From NCBI GenBank assembly GCA_964576275.1, contig CAZNUN010000003.1, positions 69,848-133,847 of the forward strand: 64,000 nt of DNA, written 5' to 3'. This stretch comes from an uncultured bacterium. GTDB lineage: Bacteria; Fidelibacterota; UBA2242. This document shows, one piece after another, positions 32,516 through 40,492 of the stretch (position 1 is its first letter; the number at the start of each line of letters is the position of its first letter). Below the pieces are notes generated by a model. It worked only from the letters and a program-made list of their open reading frames with translations, searched no databases and was not told where the DNA came from. The translations under genes were made by a program, and so were the position numbers.

Positions 32516-34195
32516 ATGAATTTCTCAGGTAAAGAATTTAAACTGCAACCGCGCACTGCGATTTCGGTTTTTGTTATCCTGCTTTTCCTGTTGCTGGCCT
32601 CAGCCTATCTCGAATTTCAGAATCGTAAAAAAGCCACCCTGGAATTAATGGCGCTGATGTCCGAGAATTTATCCCAGACCATTCGGCAGGCGGCCGTCAA
32701 TTCTATTCTGAGTAATGATGCCATGGAAGACAAATTGGCCAACCGTACGTTCGACGCTCTGCGCCGAATCGCCGCCAATCCTAAAACAGTACAAAAGTAT
32801 GGCAATTCAGGCGAACATCTTGCAAACGAATATGGATTGGTCGGACTAAAGGTTATCGGAAGTTCCGGTAACCTGGTGTGGGTAACACAATCGACTATTT
32901 ATGATTTTCCAGGTACCGACGAACTGGCAGAATGGTTGGCAGCTGCTGAACCGCAAACGGTTTTTGGGTTAGAGTCGGGTGTGCTGGCGGTAGGTTGGCG
33001 TCTTGCGGACGGTGGTGCTCTGATTGGCTATGCAGACGCCATGGATTTACTCGCATATCGCCGTAAAAGCGGTCTCGGAAGTTTGATAAATGGTATTTCG
33101 CAAAACAGTGCGGTGACTTATATCGCTATCCAGGATTCGCTTGGAATTTTAGCCGCCACTGCCAACGTCGAAACCCTGCCGTCCATCGCCAGCGATAGAT
33201 TTTTACAATCAGTCATGGATTCGTCCAATTTTCAATGGCGCATAAGCAGTTTTCAGGAGCGCCGGATTTTTGAGGGTATTCTGCCTTTCGATATTTTGGA
33301 TGCCTCGTACGGCTTAATCCGGATTGCTCTGGATTACAAACCGATTCAGGCTATTCAAACCGCGGCGGTTCGGCAGGGAGCGTTTCGTCTGGGAATTCTG
33401 TTGGTCATTGGATTTTTACTGGCGGCGTTTTCGATTACCACCCAAAATGTGCGTTTACTGCAGGCCGAAAAAGAGCACATCACCAGCGAAGTCTATCGCC
33501 TGCAGGACGACCTGCGACGACGTGAAAAATTAAGTGCGATGGGCGAACTGGCCGCCGGCGTCGCCCACGAAATCCGCAATCCGCTGAATGCCATTTCGAT
33601 GACTGTTCAACGCCTGGCGCGGGAATTTCCGGCGGCGGAAGGCGCCGATGAACAGTCTGAACTGATCAAAATTGTTCGGCGTGAAATCGACCGGATTAGC
33701 GCCATTATCCGCCAATTTTTAGAGTTCGCTCGCCCGGCGCCTCTCGTTAAAAAACCGGCCCTGGTTGAGGAGCTGATTGCCCAAGTCGTGGCGCTCTATA
33801 CGGCTAGGGCGGCCAGCCGGCAGGTGAAAATCGAGTGGGAAAATCACCGGTCTGTAAAAGCCTACCTCGATGCCGATAAAATCACCCAGTGTTTAGTTAA
33901 TTTACTGGAAAATGCGCTGGATGCCGTCGAAATTGGCGGAATCGTGCAAATCCGCCTTGAGACGCCCCGCCGCAAATATTTTTCCATTATTGTGGAGGAT
34001 AACGGAACCGGTATTCCGGCGGAAAACCAGAGCCGGATTTTCAACCTTTATTTCACCACCAAACCCAACGGAACCGGACTGGGACTGGCGCAGGTTTTAC
34101 AAATCGTGGGCGAACATGACGGCACGGTTGAAGTTTTCAGCGAACCCGGCCGGGGCACTCGTTTCATATTAACAATTCCATTCGGGAAGGAATAA
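32516..34195 (+). CDS. Sensor histidine kinase with a periplasmic sensor domain between two TM helices
   Basis: TM1 (residues 20-40), a periplasmic domain of roughly 250 aa, then TM2. HisKA H-box (AAGVAHEIRNPLNAI) and HATPase_c N, G1 and G2 boxes are present. Confidence 0.85.
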   Translation: MNFSGKEFKLQPRTAISVFVILLFLLLASAYLEFQNRKKATLELMALMSENLSQTIRQAAVNSILSNDAMEDKLANRTFDALRRIAANPKTVQKYGNSGEHLANEYGLVGLKVIGSSGNLVWVTQSTIYDFPGTDELAEWLAAAEPQTVFGLESGVLAVGWRLADGGALIGYADAMDLLAYRRKSGLGSLINGISQNSAVTYIAIQDSLGILAATANVETLPSIASDRFLQSVMDSSNFQWRISSFQERRIFEGILPFDILDASYGLIRIALDYKPIQAIQTAAVRQGAFRLGILLVIGFLLAAFSITTQNVRLLQAEKEHITSEVYRLQDDLRRREKLSAMGELAAGVAHEIRNPLNAISMTVQRLAREFPAAEGADEQSELIKIVRREIDRISAIIRQFLEFARPAPLVKKPALVEELIAQVVALYTARAASRQVKIEWENHRSVKAYLDADKITQCLVNLLENALDAVEIGGIVQIRLETPRRKYFSIIVEDNGTGIPAENQSRIFNLYFTTKPNGTGLGLAQVLQIVGEHDGTVEVFSEPGRGTRFILTIPFGKE

Positions 34196-34196
34196 T

Positions 34197-35543
34197 ATGT
34201 TTAATCTGAACGTGGCGGTAATCGACGATGATGCCACCCAGCGGGAACTCCTAAGCGGGTTCTTCCGCAAATTGGGTTGCACGGTGTTTGCCTGTGCTTC
34301 GGGCGAAAACTGTTTGTCGGTCATCGAAAAACAATATCTCGATGTGGTGCTGACCGATTTCCGGATGCCGGGCATGAGCGGCCACGAAATTTTAAACAAA
34401 GTCAAAGCCATCAATCCGGAAATTCAGGTAATTATCATGACGGCGTTCGGAACTATCGAGGATGCCGTGACTGCCATGCGTCAGGGAGCCTGGGATTATC
34501 TGGCCAAGCCGGTTGATCTGGATGAACTCGAACTGAAACTGCGTAAAATCGCTGAACACAATGCCCTCGTACGTGAGAACCAATTGTTAAAATCGCGAAT
34601 TGCCGAAGCCGAGCTGCCCACCGAAATTATTTTTAAAAGTAAGGCAATGGCGGAAGTACTGAATATCGTCGCCCGTGTCAGTGACAGTCAGGCCGCGGTT
34701 TTGATTCGGGGCGAGAGCGGCACCGGCAAAGAGCTGATTGCCCGGGCAATTCATCAGGCTTCGGCGCGCCGCACCAAACCTTTTGTGGCGATCAACTGCG
34801 CCGCCATTCCGGAAACCCTTTTCGAGAGTGAAATATTCGGACATGAAAAAGGAGCTTTTACCGGAGCAACCGAGCGCAATCGCGGACGGCTGGAGGCCGC
34901 GGAGGGCGGAACGCTCTTCCTGGATGAAGTCGCCGACATTCCACTCAATTTTCAGGTCAAATTACTACGGGTTTTACAGGAAAAAGAATACCAGCGCCTC
35001 GGTTCTACCCAAACTCTGCAGGCGGACGTCCGGATTGTGTCGGCGACCAATAAAAATATTCAGCAGCTGATTGAAGAGGGTAAATTCCGGGCGGATTTGT
35101 TCTTCCGGCTGAATGTCATTCCACTCGAAATTCCGCCTCTGCGTGAACGCCGCGAGGACATCGTTCCGCTGGTGCAGCATTTCATTGCGAAACATGCCCG
35201 GCTGAACAACCGTCCGATACAAAACATCTCAGCCGAAGGTCTGAATTCGCTGCTGCGCTACGATTATCCGGGCAACGTGCGCGAACTGGAAAACATTATC
35301 GAACGCGCTGTTATTCTGGCTCGCGAAACGACGCTTACGACGGCCGATTTGCCGTTGCAACCGATTGCTCAATCTGCCGTTTCACTCTCCAGGCCGCTCA
35401 ATGAACAGGTCGAAGACCTCGAACGCGAATTGATTCGCCAAGCCTTGCAACAGACCGGCAATGTGCAGATCCGCGCGGCGCAATTGCTGGGGCTTTCCGA
35501 GCGGGTTTTGCGGTATAAAATCGAAAAATATAAACTCAATTAA
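34197..35543 (+). CDS. Sigma-54-dependent response regulator (NtrC family)
   Basis: REC domain (D in [13 protein letters not shown]), AAA+ sigma-54 activation domain ([15 protein letters not shown]; GAFTGA), and a C-terminal Fis-type HTH. Confidence 0.9.
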
Positions 35544-35671
35544 GATCGACATTATTGTCGAATTACCGACAAAATTGGCGAAATATTGCTTCAGCGCCTT
35601 GACCATTAAAAACACCTTTGTTATTTATTTTATCGTCGGGAAATGATAAATTGGAATATGATTATTCTCCT

Positions 35672-35688
35672 TTGGCATGGCTATTGAA
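35672..35688 (+). promoter_or_regulatory. Candidate sigma-54 (-24/-12) promoter, TGGCAT-N5-TTGAA
   Basis: TGGCATGGCTATTGAA at 35673-35687 matches TGGCAC-N5-TTGCW at 10 of 12 positions with correct spacing. It lies about 55 nt upstream of the 35742 gene and directly downstream of the NtrC-family regulator. Confidence 0.45.
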
Positions 35689-35741
35689 TTAATCGTAGCC
35701 AGAAATTTGAAATTGAGAACACAAAGACAAAGGAGAAAAAA

Positions 35742-36206
35742 ATGAAGAAACTCAATTTGATCGCATTTTTAACACTCAGCCTCTTGGTTGTTTTGGTAAC
35801 TATGCCGGTTGGTCTGAGGGCTCAGACTTCGACTAAGCAGCACGGCTCCCACTTCGTGGATACCGATGGCGACGGGTACAATGACAACGCTCCGGACGCA
35901 GACGGTGACGGGATTCCGAACGGACAGGATCAGGATTATGTACGCTCCGGTAGTGGTCGCGGAAAAGGTTTTGTGGATGCCGATGGCGACGGTTTCAACG
36001 ATAACGCTCTGGATGCTGACGGCGATGGAATTCCGAACGGACAGGACTCAGACTATCAACGCCCCGCCGACGGAACCGGTCAGAAACATATGTACGGCAA
36101 TCGCCACCAAACCCAGGCTTCTGAAAGTCAGGCGCCTGCCAATTCAAACTGCAATGACAATTCCACCCGCTCCCGAAAAGGTAATCGCGGTGCCGGCAAT
36201 AAATAA
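35742..36206 (+). CDS. Small secreted protein with tandem DxDGDG (thrombospondin type 3 / EF-hand-like) calcium-binding repeats
   Basis: Signal peptide is present. Two near-identical units of about 37 aa (FVDxDGDG[YF]NDNAxDADGDGIPNGQDxDY) are also repeated at the nucleotide level. Confidence 0.65.
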   Translation: MKKLNLIAFLTLSLLVVLVTMPVGLRAQTSTKQHGSHFVDTDGDGYNDNAPDADGDGIPNGQDQDYVRSGSGRGKGFVDADGDGFNDNALDADGDGIPNGQDSDYQRPADGTGQKHMYGNRHQTQASESQAPANSNCNDNSTRSRKGNRGAGNK

Positions 36207-36277
36207 ACAGGCTTGCCAGATGAAAACGGTCGACGGAATCTCCGTCGGCCGTTCCGGCTTTTAATGAGGAGAATGCC

Positions 36278-36886
36278 ATGAAATTAATTCCGCACTTATT
36301 GATGGTTTTTACAATTGTTGCGACGTTAGGTTTCAGCCAATCCACGCCGAATGAAGCCCGGTCGGTGCGTGGATTCATTGATGAAAATCATGATGGAATC
36401 AATGATTGGTTCCGGGATGCCAATGGTGACGGAATCAACGATATTGATCAAAAATCCTACCGGCACACATTCCGTTTTCAGGATCAAGACCGCGACGGTC
36501 GCAACGATCTTTTTATGGATGAAGACGGTGATGGGGTCAATGATCTGAATGCGAAATTTGGCGATGCTAATAAAGATGGCTGGAGTGAAAATATCATTGA
36601 CAACGACCACAATTGGATCAACGATATCACCGGTGAAATTTATACTCGTCGTAATCTGGGCGGCTCCCGCTACGGTTTTGTGCTGGAAGAATATCGGGAA
36701 AAGTTGAGCGATTTTACCGATCAGGATGGCGACGGCCAGGATGACCGGCTAGCCAAGCGTGAGGGTTTGCAGGAACAACGCATGGATCGTTTTATCGATG
36801 CGGATGGCGACGGCGTCTGTGATCAGCGCGGATTTTACCGGCATCGCAAAGGCAGCAGTAGTCGTGGCTCCGGGAGAAAACCATGA
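36278..36886 (+). CDS. Second secreted Asp-rich DxDGDG calcium-binding repeat protein
   Basis: Signal peptide is present. At least five DxDGDGxND-type loops (DANGDGINDID; DEDGDGVNDLN; DQDGDGQDD; DADGDGVCD). Confidence 0.65.
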   Translation: MKLIPHLLMVFTIVATLGFSQSTPNEARSVRGFIDENHDGINDWFRDANGDGINDIDQKSYRHTFRFQDQDRDGRNDLFMDEDGDGVNDLNAKFGDANKDGWSENIIDNDHNWINDITGEIYTRRNLGGSRYGFVLEEYREKLSDFTDQDGDGQDDRLAKREGLQEQRMDRFIDADGDGVCDQRGFYRHRKGSSSRGSGRKP

Positions 36887-38025
36887 GCCTGAACCGACGC
36901 ATTTTCTTTTGGGCCGGCCTGCTGGCAGTCTTTTTTAATTCCCAAGCTGGAGCCCAATGGCAACTTTCGCTCGATACATATACCGGCCGGGACAACAATC
37001 TATTACGTTATTACAATCCGGTCGCGGATGCCATTTTTTCACCTCAAATCGAAATAGCCTATCTGGGCGCCCAAACCCGGTTTTATTACAATTACGACCA
37101 GACCCGGATTATCGAAAATGACCAGTATAATTTTTCCGTGCAGCAGGCCGGCGTCGACTTTACAGCCGGAAACGCGATGAAGATTGGTCACTATCTGGGC
37201 GCCAATTTGAACCGGCGGTCGAATCAGCCGGATTACGATTATTTCGATTACTGGAAAGCCGAAGGCGTTTACAATTTCAAATATTTCCCGGTTGACTGGG
37301 TTTTATTTAAAGGCGAAATAGTGGCGTTTTATAAGAAATTCGACGAAGAACCGGCCTGGAATCACCTGGAAACGAACCTGAATTTTTCCGGCAGTATTTT
37401 TTTGCCGACCCGTACAACCATTCGCCTAAGCCTTTTCGGACTATTGCGGGATTTTAGTTCGTATACGACCCGGGATTCTGTTTCCACAACTGCGGAACTG
37501 TCTACGCTAAGGCAATTAGTGGGGGTGGTGCGACTGGCCCAATCGTTTGGAGCGAGAGTCGGCGGTTACAGTGATTTTCTCTATCGTTATAATCCTTCGG
37601 AAGGCAATCCGTACCAGGTCGAAATTACCGCATTTAGTCCGATTGACGATTATTTCGGTTATAAAGGATACCGGTGGACGAATGCCCTGAAATGGAAAAT
37701 TAATTCACAAGTCTGGATGAAAATCGCCGGCGCGGTCTATACGAACACTTACCTGAACCGGCCGGTTTATGAATTCGATTTTGAGAGTGGCACCTGGGTT
37801 ACGGATGCGGATGACAATTACATCATGCTGTCTGAAAACCGCCGCGACCAGGGTTACACCGCTGGAATTTCAGCCGGCCTGACATTTCGTAATGTTTTTA
37901 ACCGGGCCGCCAATCTCGAAATCATCGGATCTTTCGATTACTCTCATGTTGAATCCAACGACAATTATTTTGATTATAATGACCGCTCTTTCGGTGTACA
38001 AATCCGGTATGATTTACAATGGTGA
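36883..38025 (+). CDS. Outer-membrane beta-barrel protein, hypothetical
   Basis: Signal peptide (LLAVFFNSQAGAQW), amphipathic beta-strand periodicity, and a C-terminal aromatic residue (IRYDLQW). Overlaps the upstream gene by 4 nt. Confidence 0.6.
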   Translation: MSLNRRIFFWAGLLAVFFNSQAGAQWQLSLDTYTGRDNNLLRYYNPVADAIFSPQIEIAYLGAQTRFYYNYDQTRIIENDQYNFSVQQAGVDFTAGNAMKIGHYLGANLNRRSNQPDYDYFDYWKAEGVYNFKYFPVDWVLFKGEIVAFYKKFDEEPAWNHLETNLNFSGSIFLPTRTTIRLSLFGLLRDFSSYTTRDSVSTTAELSTLRQLVGVVRLAQSFGARVGGYSDFLYRYNPSEGNPYQVEITAFSPIDDYFGYKGYRWTNALKWKINSQVWMKIAGAVYTNTYLNRPVYEFDFESGTWVTDADDNYIMLSENRRDQGYTAGISAGLTFRNVFNRAANLEIIGSFDYSHVESNDNYFDYNDRSFGVQIRYDLQW

Positions 38026-38073
38026 AAAAAATATTTGCAATTATTCGAAATTATCCGTAAATAACCGCCCGTA

Positions 38074-38163
38074 ATGAACAATATCAGCAATACAAAAACC
38101 GCTCTGCAAAACACCCAAAACTGGTGGTGGTGGCAAATTGATATGAGGGCGGTGACGTGCTGA
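38074..38163 (+). CDS. trp leader peptide (29 aa) with four consecutive Trp codons
   Basis: ATG...TGG TGG TGG TGG (38122-38133)...TGA encodes MNNISNTKTALQNTQNWWWWQIDMRAVTC. It lies in the 238-nt leader of trpB2, upstream of an intrinsic terminator. Confidence 0.6.
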   Translation: MNNISNTKTALQNTQNWWWWQIDMRAVTC

Positions 38164-38195
38164 GATAAGCAATTAAGCAATTCTGTATTTGCATA

Positions 38196-38227
38196 GACCC
38201 GCCCGAAAAAGCGGGTTTTTTGTTTTT
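38196..38227 (+). terminator. Attenuator terminator: GACCCGCCC-GAAAAA-GCGGGT followed by TTTTTTGTTTTT
   Basis: A 6-7 bp GC-rich stem plus a U-tract ends 37 nt before the trpB2 ATG. The upstream GGGCGG (38147-38152) can pair alternatively with the CCGCCC arm as an antiterminator. Confidence 0.65.
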
Positions 38228-38263
38228 AATGAAAATTTGAACACATAATGAAAGGAAAAGAAA

Positions 38264-39625
38264 ATGGAACAACACAAATTCATCTTGTCTGAGTCCGAAA
38301 TGCCGAAAACCTGGTACAACATCGCGGCCGATCTGCCGTTTGAAATGCCGCCAGTCTTACATCCAGGCACTCAACAACCCATTACGCCCGACGATTTGGC
38401 GCCGCTCTTTCCGATGGCGATCATAGAGCAGGAAGTCAGCACGGAACGCTTTATTCCGATTCCGGAACCGGTGCGGGAAATATATCAAATTTGGAGACCG
38501 TCGCCACTGGTGCGGGCTTATCGTCTGGAGAAAGCCATCGGAACACGCTCAAAAATTTACTATAAAAATGAGAGTGTCAGCCCGGCTGGCAGTCACAAGC
38601 CCAATACTGCGGTTGCCCAGGCTTATTACAACGCCAAAGAGGGAGTCAAAAAACTGACCACTGAAACCGGCGCCGGACAATGGGGCAGCGCCCTGGCATT
38701 AGCCTGTAATTTCTTCGGGCTGGAATGCCTGGTGTTCATGGTGCGGGTCAGCTATGACGGCAAACCCTATCGCAAATCAATGATCCAGAGCTGGGGCGCG
38801 CGTATTTTTGCCAGCCCGAGTAAGGAAACCGTCTGTGGTCGCGAAATACTGGCGCGCGATCCGGAATGTTCCGGCAGTCTGGGCATTGCGATCTCGGAAG
38901 CGGTCGAAGTCGCTGTAGCCGATGAAAAAACAAAGTATTCACTCGGCTCGGTACTGAATCACGTCATGCTACACCAGACCATTATCGGCGAAGAAGCCCA
39001 GCAACAAATGAAGCTGGCGGGTGATTATCCTGACATAGTCATCGGCTGTGTCGGCGGCGGCAGTAACTTTGCCGGCATCTCTTTCCCGTTTATCAAGGAT
39101 AAGTTTGCCGGGAAAAACCTGCGCGCCATTGCGGTTGAGCCGACGGCTTGCCCATCGCTGACCAAGGGTCTGTATGCTTACGATTACGGTGACACCGGCA
39201 AACTGACGCCGCTGGTTGCCATGTATACACTCGGTCATAATTTCATTCCGTCGAAAATTCACGCCGGCGGGTTGCGCTATCACGGCGCTTCGCCGTTAGT
39301 CAGCCGGCTGGTCAAGGAAGGATATATCGAAGCCCGCTCCTACCAGCAGACCGAAGTCTTCCAGGCAGCGGTGACCTTTGCCCGCAGTGAGGGCATTATT
39401 CCGGCGCCAGAGACGGCGCATGCCATCAAGGCTAGCATTGACGAAGCCAAGAAAGCCGACGAAGAGGGTGTCAGCAAGACGATCCTTTTCAATTTCAGCG
39501 GTCATGGCCACTTCGATATGAGCGCCTATGACGCCTATTTTAGCAAGCGGATGGAAGATAATCATTTTTCCGACGCCGCTCTGCAAAAGAACTTAGCGGA
39601 GATCGCCGATTTGCCGAAAATCTGA
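38264..39625 (+). CDS. trpB: TrpB2-type tryptophan synthase beta chain (PLP-dependent)
   Basis: 453 aa, the long TrpB2 form. Motifs include [16 protein letters not shown], the PLP-lysine region [14 protein letters not shown], and the glycine loop [11 protein letters not shown]. Confidence 0.85.
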
Positions 39626-39647: not shown

Positions 39648-39683
39648 GAAAAACGGGGCGTGGATTTATGCGCCCCGTTTGGA
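39648..39683 (+). terminator. Hairpin after trpB2: AAACGGGGCG-N10-CGCCCCGTTT
   Basis: A perfect 10-bp GC-rich inverted repeat lies 25 nt after the trpB2 stop. The A/T flanks would let it function in either direction. Confidence 0.45.
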
Positions 39684-39727
39684 TTATCTGGCTTCGTAAG
39701 GTGTTATTGTTTACATTCCGCCCCGCA

Positions 39728-40492
39728 ATGCCGATTGGATTTGACAGAATGCAAGCAAAAATTGTCCCGGTGGCCGGAATCGGACCAGTTGTTCTACGCC
39801 GCAATCGCCGCGCCCGGCGGCTGACGTTACGCATTAGTCCCGGCAAACCGGTCACGCTCACGCTTCCGTATGTCATCAGCGCAAAAGCCGCTCTGGCCTT
39901 TCTGGAGGCGCACCGGGATTGGGCCCGGCAGATGATGGAAAAAAATAAAACCCATCGCCCGCCGGCGGTTATTGTTGATGGAACGAAACCGGTACAAACC
40001 CGCGCTCATCGTCTGGAATTACATCCTGCCGAAGGCGAAAACATCAGGATTTCAGTACGCTCTGGGCTGATTCGCATTCAATATCCGGCCGACGAGCCGG
40101 TTACCAGTCCGCGGGTTCAGGAAGGCATCGCGCAGGGCTTGATTGCGGCTTACCGGAACGAAGCCAATCAATATCTGCCGAAGCGGGTAAAAGAACTCGC
40201 CGGGCGATATGGTTTTTATTACCATCGCGTCGCAATCAAAAATCTCAGATCGCGCTGGGGCAGTTGTTCAGCGGCTAATAATATTAACCTGAATCTGCAT
40301 CTGATGCGTCTGTCGGACGATCTTATTGACTACGTGATTCTGCATGAATTAACTCATACGCGTGTGAAAAATCACAGTCCGGCTTTCTGGAGAGAACTGC
40401 AAAAATTTCTGCCGGACGCCAAAGAGAAGCGTAAGCAACTCCGCTTCCGCACCCGCAGCGGTTTGCTGGATTCCGTGCTGATTGGACTATAG
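39728..40492 (+). CDS. DUF45/YgjP-family zinc metallohydrolase (M48-like)
   Basis: C-terminal signature RWGSCS...INLNLHLMRLSDDLIDYVILHELTHTRVKNH with the HExxH motif. The track start at 39668 lies inside the upstream hairpin, so the start is placed at ATG 39728; 39749 is also possible. Confidence 0.65.
   Translation: MPIGFDRMQAKIVPVAGIGPVVLRRNRRARRLTLRISPGKPVTLTLPYVISAKAALAFLEAHRDWARQMMEKNKTHRPPAVIVDGTKPVQTRAHRLELHPAEGENIRISVRSGLIRIQYPADEPVTSPRVQEGIAQGLIAAYRNEANQYLPKRVKELAGRYGFYYHRVAIKNLRSRWGSCSAANNINLNLHLMRLSDDLIDYVILHELTHTRVKNHSPAFWRELQKFLPDAKEKRKQLRFRTRSGLLDSVLIGL

Follow-up and report, generated by a model that had tools for sequence, protein, structure and literature searches.

In a 64,000-nt stretch of DNA from contig CAZNUN010000003.1 of assembly GCA_964576275.1 (hereafter the window, meaning this stretch at its full length), the tryptophan synthase beta-like gene trpB2 is preceded by a leader of 238 nt. 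What does this leader do, and what does the answer say about the enzyme encoded behind it? A preliminary description, made from the letters of the sequence, had read the leader as a classical attenuator, in which a ribosome translating a short peptide rich in tryptophan (Trp) decides between a terminator and an antiterminator, as in trpL of Escherichia coli. Comparison with related leaders and RNA folding make it very probable that this is correct in outline. The leader is best described as a ribosome-mediated Trp-codon leader-peptide transcription attenuator controlling a stand-alone trpB2 in a member of Candidatus Neomarinimicrobiota (Marinimicrobia).

The leader ORF and the gene that it precedes

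The leader occupies 38026-38263, between the gene for a 380-aa protein (36883-38025) and trpB2. The 29-aa peptide and the four consecutive TGG codons of the preliminary description are all present, and the features are given in Table 1. The start of the leader does not stand as first given, however: it had been placed at 38064, and the real ATG of the open reading frame (ORF) is 10 nt further on, at 38074. There is an in-frame TAA at 38062-38064 and the ORF therefore cannot extend upstream of 38074. Three segments follow the Trp codons. Region 2 lies within the ORF, region 3 contains CCGCCC at 38199-38204 within the longer motif ACCCGCCC (38197-38204), and region 4 consists of GCGGGT at 38211-38216 followed by TTTTTGTTTTT. 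The Shine-Dalgarno sequence of trpB2 is located 3' of the terminator and is not sequestered by it.

The product of trpB2 is a TrpB-like pyridoxal phosphate (PLP) enzyme. It scores 746 bits against NF009057 (cut-off 366) and 651 bits against TIGR01415 (cut-off 519). In contrast, it scores 149 bits against the model of canonical trpB, TIGR00263, which is below the cut-off of 392. Of 44 ORFs in the 64-kb window that reach about 150 aa or more, none was a further trp gene, and trpB2 is therefore stand-alone, as had been claimed. Two antisense ORFs that cover the leader had been dismissed as artefacts. In agreement with this, neither has a Pfam match and a rough test revealed no consistent open frame in the relatives.

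Table 1. Positions of the features of the leader and of trpB2 in the window, followed by Trp T-boxes and SbnI-like genes that accompany trpB2 at other loci (locus:positions)
Feature	Position	Strand	Sequence or description	Basis or remark
-35-like hexamer	38035-38040	+	TTGCAA	Conservation
-10-like hexamer	38058-38063	+	TAAATA, 10 nt before the leader ATG	Conservation
Leader-peptide ORF	38074-38163	+	MNNISNTKTALQNTQNWWWWQIDMRAVTC	29 codons + TGA
Candidate region 1a	38081-38089	+	AAUAUCAGC; pairs with 38158-38166 around the stop codon	RNAalifold, window's clade
Candidate region 1b	38098-38105	+	ACCGCUCU; pairs with AGGGCGGU at 38146-38153; putative anti-antiterminator	RNAalifold, window's clade
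Regulatory codons	38122-38133	+	TGG x4 (Trp), consecutive, in frame	Sequence
Region 2, antiterminator 5' arm	38147-38152	+	GGGCGG, inside the ORF, 9-14 nt before the stop codon	
Region 3, arm common to antiterminator and terminator	38195-38204	+	AGACCCGCCC	
Region 4, terminator 3' arm and U-tract	38211-38227	+	GCGGGUUU	
Shine-Dalgarno sequence of trpB2	38252-38256	+	AAGGA	Sequence; AAGG kept in all relatives
trpB2, regulated gene	38264-39625	+	TrpB-like PLP enzyme, 453 aa	Pfam PALP
GC-rich hairpin directly after the trpB2 stop	39653-39678	+	10 bp	Possible transcription end
Trp T-box before trpB2	L069:3673-3938			Covariance model
Trp T-box before trpB2	L053:3678-3927			Covariance model
Trp T-box before trpB2	L030:2040-2356			Covariance model
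SbnI-like gene and trpB2	L173:1918-4365			
SbnI-like gene and trpB2	L030:2040-4686			
SbnI-like gene and trpB2	L047:3123-5347			
SbnI-like gene and trpB2	L134:1610-3847			

The leader is conserved and is more than a chance arrangement

The simplest alternative is that the arrangement is accidental. On this view the hairpin at 38195-38227 would simply terminate the upstream operon (gene 36883-38025), and an ORF with a Trp run would lie in front of it by chance. The upstream gene is on the same strand and there is no other terminator between it and the hairpin, as this explanation would have it. We therefore looked at how often such runs occur. The sequence TGGTGGTGG is found five times in the window, against 0.31 expected. 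Frame arithmetic places the three copies that are not in the leader inside long ORFs, where they are read as GTG-GTG, so that only the leader yields in-frame Trp codons from this sequence, and the number of in-frame TGG x4 runs expected by chance is far below one. We also surveyed about 155 trpB2 loci from genomes and metagenomes for short ORFs that begin with ATG and contain at least two consecutive Trp codons. Such ORFs were found upstream of trpB2 at 17 loci in the sense direction and at one in the antisense control, although at least two of the 17 (L043 and L112) look spurious on inspection.

A search for the same leader in related genomes gave a set of 14 distinct sequences, drawn from genome and metagenome scans, a protein search and contig look-ups, all upstream of genes for TrpB2 proteins 74-96% identical to that of the window. 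The closest relatives are metagenome-assembled genomes of Candidatus Neomarinimicrobiota, with TrpB2 identities of 96% and 85%. The leader ORF is intact in every leader, with 26-29 aa and with all insertions and deletions in frame, and a run of two to four in-frame Trp codons is kept in the same place throughout (examples of the peptides are MSNFSTIKTASQNTQNWWWWQINIGAVTC, MDRISALENRQNTLNWWWQTNDRAVRC, MSHNCGTSKTKNFTNGWWKGLITGAVTTV and MQYRSCHKNYYQAWWWQFIMRAGTAI). The ORF and its Trp run thus persist down to 74% identity of TrpB2, although the number of four Trp codons, correct for the window, is not a fixed property of the family. Loss of this ORF in relatives, named beforehand as grounds for rejecting the attenuator, is thus not observed. 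Outside the Trp run and the C-terminus, which is constrained by the RNA, the peptide is variable.

The pairing segments are conserved to a much greater extent. GGGCG, ACCCGCCC and GGCGGGT are invariant in all 14 leaders and each terminator is followed by a T-rich tail, which is occasionally interrupted. Spacing is also kept: 13 nt separate the Trp run and GGGCG in 13 of the 14 leaders, and 16 nt do so in L165, which has an AAG codon after its two TGG codons. The stop codon follows GGGCG at a distance of 14 or 17 nt and is itself 28-34 nt from ACCCGCCC. When 13 of the 14 leaders were aligned by column the mean column identity was 72%. The invariant columns included TTGC of the -35 element, TAA.T of the -10 element, TGGTGG, GGGCG, ACCCGCCC, GGCGGGT, several T's of the tract, the ATG of trpB2 and part of the AAGG in its Shine-Dalgarno sequence. 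In the ATG of the leader ORF the third base is invariant as well, and the other two are at least 90% conserved.

The fourfold degenerate sites of trpB2 provide a neutral yardstick, with identities to the window of 60% in L001 and 41% in L002. Identity to the window is 100% in region 3, 88-94% in region 4 with its U-tract and 83-94% from region 2 to the stop codon, compared with 62-79% (nucleotide) in the N-terminal codons of the leader and 41-63% in the spacer after the terminator. The spacer has decayed to a roughly neutral level and the pairing segments are far above it. When the 14 leaders were used to build a covariance model, the window contained one site that matched it, with a score of 149.6 bits.

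At three of the loci (L002, L165 and L169) the gene upstream is different or divergent, and the promoter, ORF, Trp run and hairpin are nevertheless kept. Taken together with the in-frame changes in the ORF and the excess of sense over antisense runs, this makes a chance association of a Trp-run ORF with the terminator of the upstream operon extremely improbable.

Competing folds and a candidate region 1

The preliminary description had identified an intrinsic terminator and this was recovered by our terminator scan as a stem of eight pairs at 38195-38218 with a T-run to 38227. Folded alone it has a free energy of -13.6 kcal/mol (z = -3.0) and none of 200 shuffled sequences folded as well. Across the leader set the terminators range from -11.6 to -17.6 kcal/mol. 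GGGCGG had been put forward as the antiterminator arm. We folded the leaders with the RNA beneath a ribosome stalled at the last Trp codon removed, and with region 4 removed as untranscribed. Under this mask GGGCGG pairs with CCGCCC in the minimum-energy fold of the window (-19.1 kcal/mol), and region 2 pairs with region 3 in all of the other 13 leaders as well (-18.6 to -27.8 kcal/mol). ACCCGCCC is part of both structures, and the terminator and the antiterminator thus exclude each other.

The position of the ribosome fits this switch if a textbook footprint is assumed (counted from the first P-site nucleotide, about 12 nt towards the 5' end and 15 nt towards the 3' end). Stalled at any of the UGG codons, a ribosome of this size would have its leading edge at 38134-38143 and region 2 would be free. 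At the UGA (38161-38163) it would cover approximately 38144-38173 and mask region 2.

We also looked for a region 1, a segment upstream that would pair with region 2 or its surroundings. In the clade of the window RNAalifold predicts the two helices of Table 1. For region 1a, 92.6% of cells are paired; variation is one-sided and there is no statistical covariation. The region 1b helix, which is the inner one, shows one compensatory change from U-A to C-G, and a 3-nt deletion has abolished it in the L002/L082 subclade. A second clade, which we call MQY because its leader peptides start with Met-Gln-Tyr or Met-Gln-Cys, has a different predicted helix, in which the nine nucleotides following the A of the AUG pair with GGUACUGCG just 3' of GGGCGG; this helix shows one compensatory change from A-U to G-C. 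In these candidate 1:2 helices 91-97% of cells are paired, compared with 19-58% in slid controls. This suggests that a region 1 is possible, while the conserved core would be a switch of three segments in which region 2 is masked by the ribosome itself.

One further candidate was rejected. The minimum-energy fold of the full-length leader pairs CCGCCC at 38065-38070 with GGGCGG. This CCGCCC falls in the discriminator, downstream of the -10 element and ahead of the predicted transcription start, and is therefore probably not transcribed. In addition, it reads TCACCC in L085 and L169 and is replaced by unrelated sequence in distant clades. The stretch to which it belongs, 38064-38073, separates the -10 element from the leader ATG and is rich in GC (ACCGCCCGTA). 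It is conserved in the close clade (CGCCCGT) and not in distant clades. No RNA pairing that involves it is conserved, and it may be a discriminator or a start-site element.

The probable promoter and the predicted start of the leader transcript

All 14 leaders contain TTGCWW and TAAnTW separated by exactly 17 nt, even though the surrounding sequence differs. The distance from the -10 element to the leader ATG is likewise 8-10 nt in every case, with variable sequence in between. The cassette of promoter, leader and trpB2 occurs in at least four different upstream gene contexts. The gene for the 380-aa protein stands upstream of it in the window and most relatives. In L002 the neighbour is a divergent gene for a protein resembling the major facilitator superfamily, which leaves about 57 nt for the promoter; in L165 it is a gene for a transporter of the SSF (sodium:solute symporter) family; and in L169 it is another gene. 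Because the cassette is kept behind different upstream genes, TTGCWW-17-TAAnTW is most likely the promoter of trpB2.

The gap of 8-10 nt between the -10 element and the ATG suggests that transcription probably starts 0-4 nt before the leader AUG and that the leader ORF is leaderless or nearly so. A 5' untranslated region of 0-4 nt would be too short to hold a Shine-Dalgarno sequence.

Comparable arrangements have been described elsewhere. In the trpL/rnTrpL leader of Sinorhizobium meliloti (PMC7298713) and in the trpEGD leader of Deinococcus deserti (PMC4007540) the ORF starts no more than 1 nt from the 5' end and controls a terminator. The arrangement predicted here from the distance between -10 and ATG is of the same leaderless kind. 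It differs in that the phylum and the sequence are others, the target is trpB2 and not trpE(G), and the start site is a prediction.

The likeness to S. meliloti raises the question of whether the terminated transcript of about 150 nt, or the peptide, also acts in trans. This would add to attenuation rather than replace it. The 5' end of rnTrpL is the ATG of trpL (PMC7298713), and the RNA predicted here would similarly begin at or near the AUG and end in a stable hairpin. In S. meliloti the attenuated small RNA rnTrpL and the peptide peTrpL are both active. Moreover, the leader interior from the stop codon to region 3 is 77-87% conserved, which is above the neutral sites. Against this, the parts of the peptide other than the Trp run and the RNA-constrained C-terminus are not conserved, and the conservation of the interior holds for the close clade and does not extend to the MQY clade. 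An additional trans action is consequently unlikely.

A model for the control of trpB2

The mechanism that we propose is as follows. Transcription would begin at the conserved sigma-70-like promoter 8-10 nt before the leader ATG, and a ribosome would load at or next to the 5' end of the RNA and trail the polymerase. When charged tRNA-Trp is scarce the ribosome would stall with its A site on one of the four UGG codons and leave GGGCGG exposed, which could pair with CCGCCC once this had been transcribed. With CCGCCC occupied the terminator would be blocked and the polymerase would continue into trpB2. When Trp is plentiful the ribosome would reach the UGA and its footprint would cover GGGCGG. 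ACCCGC and GCGGGU would then pair, and transcription would end in the U-tract at about 38220-38227. In the clade of the window 38098-38105, and possibly 38081-38089, may sequester region 2 when the leader is not translated. The attenuation of the trpL kind that had been proposed is thus supported, with the ORF, the Trp run, the pairing segments and their geometry all conserved.

Several points weigh against this model. A generic sigma-70 scan of the window missed the promoter and TAAATA is a weak match to TATAAT. The leader ORF is without a Shine-Dalgarno sequence, which is present for trpB2 and for roughly half of the genes in the window; efficient leaderless initiation is not known from this phylum. 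The terminator stem of the window is one G-C pair shorter than that of every relative. Regions 2 to 4 are invariant and so offer no covariation, which leaves conservation and geometry as their support. Finally, the candidate 1:2 helices differ between clades and are degenerate in L002 and L082, and their covariation scores were reached in 247 of 500 and 132 of 500 shuffles and are not significant.

The leader of E. coli trpL is the obvious model. The two share a short ORF with tandem Trp codons, alternative 2:3 and 3:4 pairings, and a ribosome whose position would decide between them. There are nevertheless clear differences. E. coli trpL has two Trp codons, whereas there are four here and two to four in the relatives. 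Unlike trpL, the leader ORF is probably (near-)leaderless, with neither a Shine-Dalgarno sequence nor a 5' untranslated region; its region 2 is placed within the ORF, 5' of the stop codon, and no clear region 1 is conserved. Lastly, trpL controls trpEDCBA and the leader described here a single stand-alone trpB2.

Comparison with curated RNA families

Terminator and antiterminator pairs are common to all mechanisms of this class, and the same switch could be set by a trans-acting protein or a ligand-binding RNA, for example a TRAP-like protein, a T-box or a riboswitch. We therefore compared the window with Rfam and found no family at its gathering score. The lowest E-value in the region, 0.43, belongs to RF00513 (Trp_leader). 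Its score is 17.9 bits, the gathering score being 41, and the alignment covers UGGUGG and the terminator. At E-values up to 10, neither Bacteroid-trp (RF01692) nor T-box (RF00230) matches 37950-38350, and riboswitches are absent as well. The T-box core motif is absent from the loci of close Marinimicrobia-like relatives, and there is no (G/U)AG repeat array in the sequence. In addition, the conserved features 5' of region 2 are the ATG, the open frame and a Trp run at a fixed distance, and nothing else. It is accordingly very improbable that a protein or a ligand sets this switch. The element works like trpL but is not, by sequence, a member of any curated family.

The Bacteroid-trp motif sits upstream of tryptophan biosynthesis genes. 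It is found in the same FCB (Fibrobacteres-Chlorobi-Bacteroidetes) superphylum, but its model does not match the leader here and it is a separate family. For Bacteroidetes it is listed among the motifs with a cis-regulatory role (RF01692; Weinberg et al., 2010; PMC2864571). The mechanism had been called unexpected for the lineage. This was put too strongly, since leader-peptide Trp attenuators, Bacteroid-trp among them, are known or predicted in the FCB group. In the literature searched we found no paper on an attenuator upstream of genes of the TrpB2 family, although a prior description elsewhere is possible. The 'trpB2' of PMC1262725 is a second gene to which this name was given, in a trpB2A operon of Corynebacterium diphtheriae.

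Predicted Trp sensors upstream of trpB2 in other lineages

Leaders with Trp runs and strong terminators are also present before trpB2 in Bacteroidales (L010, L052 and L075) and at L080, L136, L152 and L171. In the first six of these seven loci the Trp-run ORF is located about 120-260 nt before trpB2; in L171 the leader is at 2790-2955. The peptides look independent (examples are MALNTINRVNCSWWWWHEKNYRL and MKRILSNNWWWIKHRNIPVT). Latescibacterota L003 also has a Trp-run leader before trpB2, with weaker hairpins that are without a good U-tract. The ATG of the L003 leader is 8 nt from a TGGTATAAT -10 box. Six loci (L010, L052, L075, L080, L136 and L152, namely three Bacteroidales, one labelled Hyphobacterium and two metagenome contigs) were searched further. 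They gave no match to Bacteroid-trp at E up to 1, and Rfam gave no match for their Trp-run leaders. The covariance model of the 14 leaders gives weak full-length matches to L171 (26 bits), L173 (20 bits) and L075 (19 bits). Because these matches are weak, the Trp-run leaders of other phyla are very distant relatives at most, or are convergent.

At three loci of Chloroflexi (L069, L053 and L030) trpB2 is preceded directly by T-boxes (RF00230) with UGG at the specifier position, which score 97-108 bits. The T-box core motif occurs in the same position at two metagenome loci (L126:2433-2444 and L127:2436-2447). These T-boxes resemble the leader studied here in controlling the same gene, in responding to the charging of tRNA-Trp and in having a terminator and an antiterminator as output. 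They differ in that the tRNA contacts the RNA directly and no leader ORF is involved, whereas a translating ribosome would be the sensor here. That different sensors of tRNA-Trp charging converge on trpB2 supports, on comparative grounds, a function of TrpB2 in Trp supply. The preliminary description had drawn this conclusion from the leader; it is reasonable and is backed by the sensors of the other phyla, though it is still reached indirectly.

The opposite logic has to be considered as well. In TnaC a conserved nascent peptide is the sensor of free Trp, and Rho is blocked; sensing of this type depends on specific conserved residues and on Rho-dependent termination. If the leader peptide acted in this way, free Trp would stall the ribosome and induce the gene at high Trp, which would imply a catabolic or indole-releasing role for the PLP enzyme. 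As in TnaC, a short Trp-containing peptide lies upstream of a PLP enzyme of indole and Trp metabolism, and the enzyme's PLP family has reactions that are reversible in principle. Unlike TnaC, however, the peptide here is variable, a run of two to four Trp codons being its only conserved part, and termination is intrinsic, by a canonical terminator whose arm is shared with the antiterminator. Moreover, the spacing fits the masking of region 2 by a terminating ribosome, and the Chloroflexi have placed before the same gene a T-box, which senses uncharged tRNA and hence starvation. We consider a nascent-peptide sensor of this kind to be very improbable, and prefer attenuation by a ribosome that responds to the charging of tRNA-Trp.

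Two observations concern L112. Its 'WW' ORF is probably spurious. An ORF at about 330-545 of the same locus ends just before trpB2 and contains a helix-turn-helix segment (...GMPQREIAKQLGVAIGTVSRGARELKYG...) that by eye resembles the TrpR/YerC family.

Genes and features around the cassette

Downstream of trpB2 there are a YgjP-like gene and a gene for a GTP-dependent phosphoenolpyruvate carboxykinase. The 75-nt stretch with the hairpin after the trpB2 stop codon has a predicted free energy of -25 kcal/mol (z = -2.4), and the tail of the hairpin, UUGGAUUAUCU, is weakly U-rich. The hairpin suggests that the unit is monocistronic; its function as a terminator is uncertain. The YgjP-like ORF listed for the window has 274 aa (39668-40492), and its ATG at 39668 falls within this hairpin. 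The gene is called with 246-261 aa in relatives and the true start is probably downstream, near 39737-39750.

The 380-aa protein encoded upstream of the leader has no Pfam or NCBIfam match. It belongs to a conserved block (32516-38025) that also encodes a histidine kinase, a sigma-54 response regulator and two small secreted proteins in which Asp/Gly-rich motifs (DADGDG...) are repeated. Most relatives show synteny over the block, but in L002, L165 and L169 it is not linked to the leader-trpB2 cassette. The window also holds genes of Type IX secretion, encoding PorV and a Por_Secre_tail protein, which would fit an organism of the FCB group.

A serine kinase-like gene next to trpB2 and the possible function of TrpB2

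In L173 (Calditrichaeota) a WWWW leader and a terminator are followed by a gene for a 297-aa protein and then by trpB2. The 297-aa protein has no match in Pfam and resembles the free serine kinase SbnI (PDB 5uje) over residues 30-273 (E = 2e-9). SbnI-like homologues are also found immediately upstream of trpB2 in L047, L134 and L030, and in L030 the pair lies behind a Trp T-box. No SbnI-like serine kinase gene is present in the window, and in the literature searched we found no paper that links such a gene with trpB2. In L047 (2840-3120) and L134 (1320-1610) a small ORF that by eye resembles an AroQ-type chorismate mutase precedes the kinase-like gene and trpB2, and would give these units an aromatic-amino-acid context.

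TrpB2 enzymes are reportedly dependent on O-phospho-L-serine (Busch et al., 2014, cited in PMC12727527), and a preference for it in vitro has been reported. The physiological role of TrpB2 is still debated, the alternatives being indole salvage and an O-phosphoserine-dependent Trp synthase (Busch, 2014, and Hiyama, 2014, both cited in PMC12727527). The pairing of an SbnI-like kinase with trpB2 suggests a route from O-phosphoserine and indole to Trp that would be induced by Trp starvation.

A wider interpretation may be offered tentatively, as a possibility that we hold to be somewhat less than even. TrpB2 would be a member of a Trp-starvation regulon across phyla, made when the charging of tRNA-Trp is low and converting scavenged or leaked indole to Trp. 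The sensors would have been recruited independently (Trp-run leaders in Marinimicrobia, Calditrichaeota, Latescibacterota and Bacteroidales, and T-boxes in Chloroflexi) and an SbnI/SerK-like free serine kinase would be co-encoded in some lineages. If this is true, the kinase of L173 and L030 would supply O-phospho-L-serine to TrpB2, and the arrangement would support, at the genomic level, an O-phosphoserine-dependent Trp synthase or indole-salvage module in vivo. The cassette of the Marinimicrobia would be a minimal module of this kind, consisting of a promoter, a leaderless leader, trpB2 and a hairpin.

The mechanism itself is of the textbook kind and will not surprise a specialist. What the locus adds is a well-conserved family of attenuators outside Rfam, with a defined promoter and a probably leaderless ORF, in a candidate phylum that has no cultured model organism. 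The attenuator would tie the expression of TrpB2 to Trp limitation, a conclusion to which the T-boxes and the other Trp-run leaders lead independently, and the predicted co-regulation of an SbnI-like gene with trpB2 makes the O-phosphoserine hypothesis directly testable.

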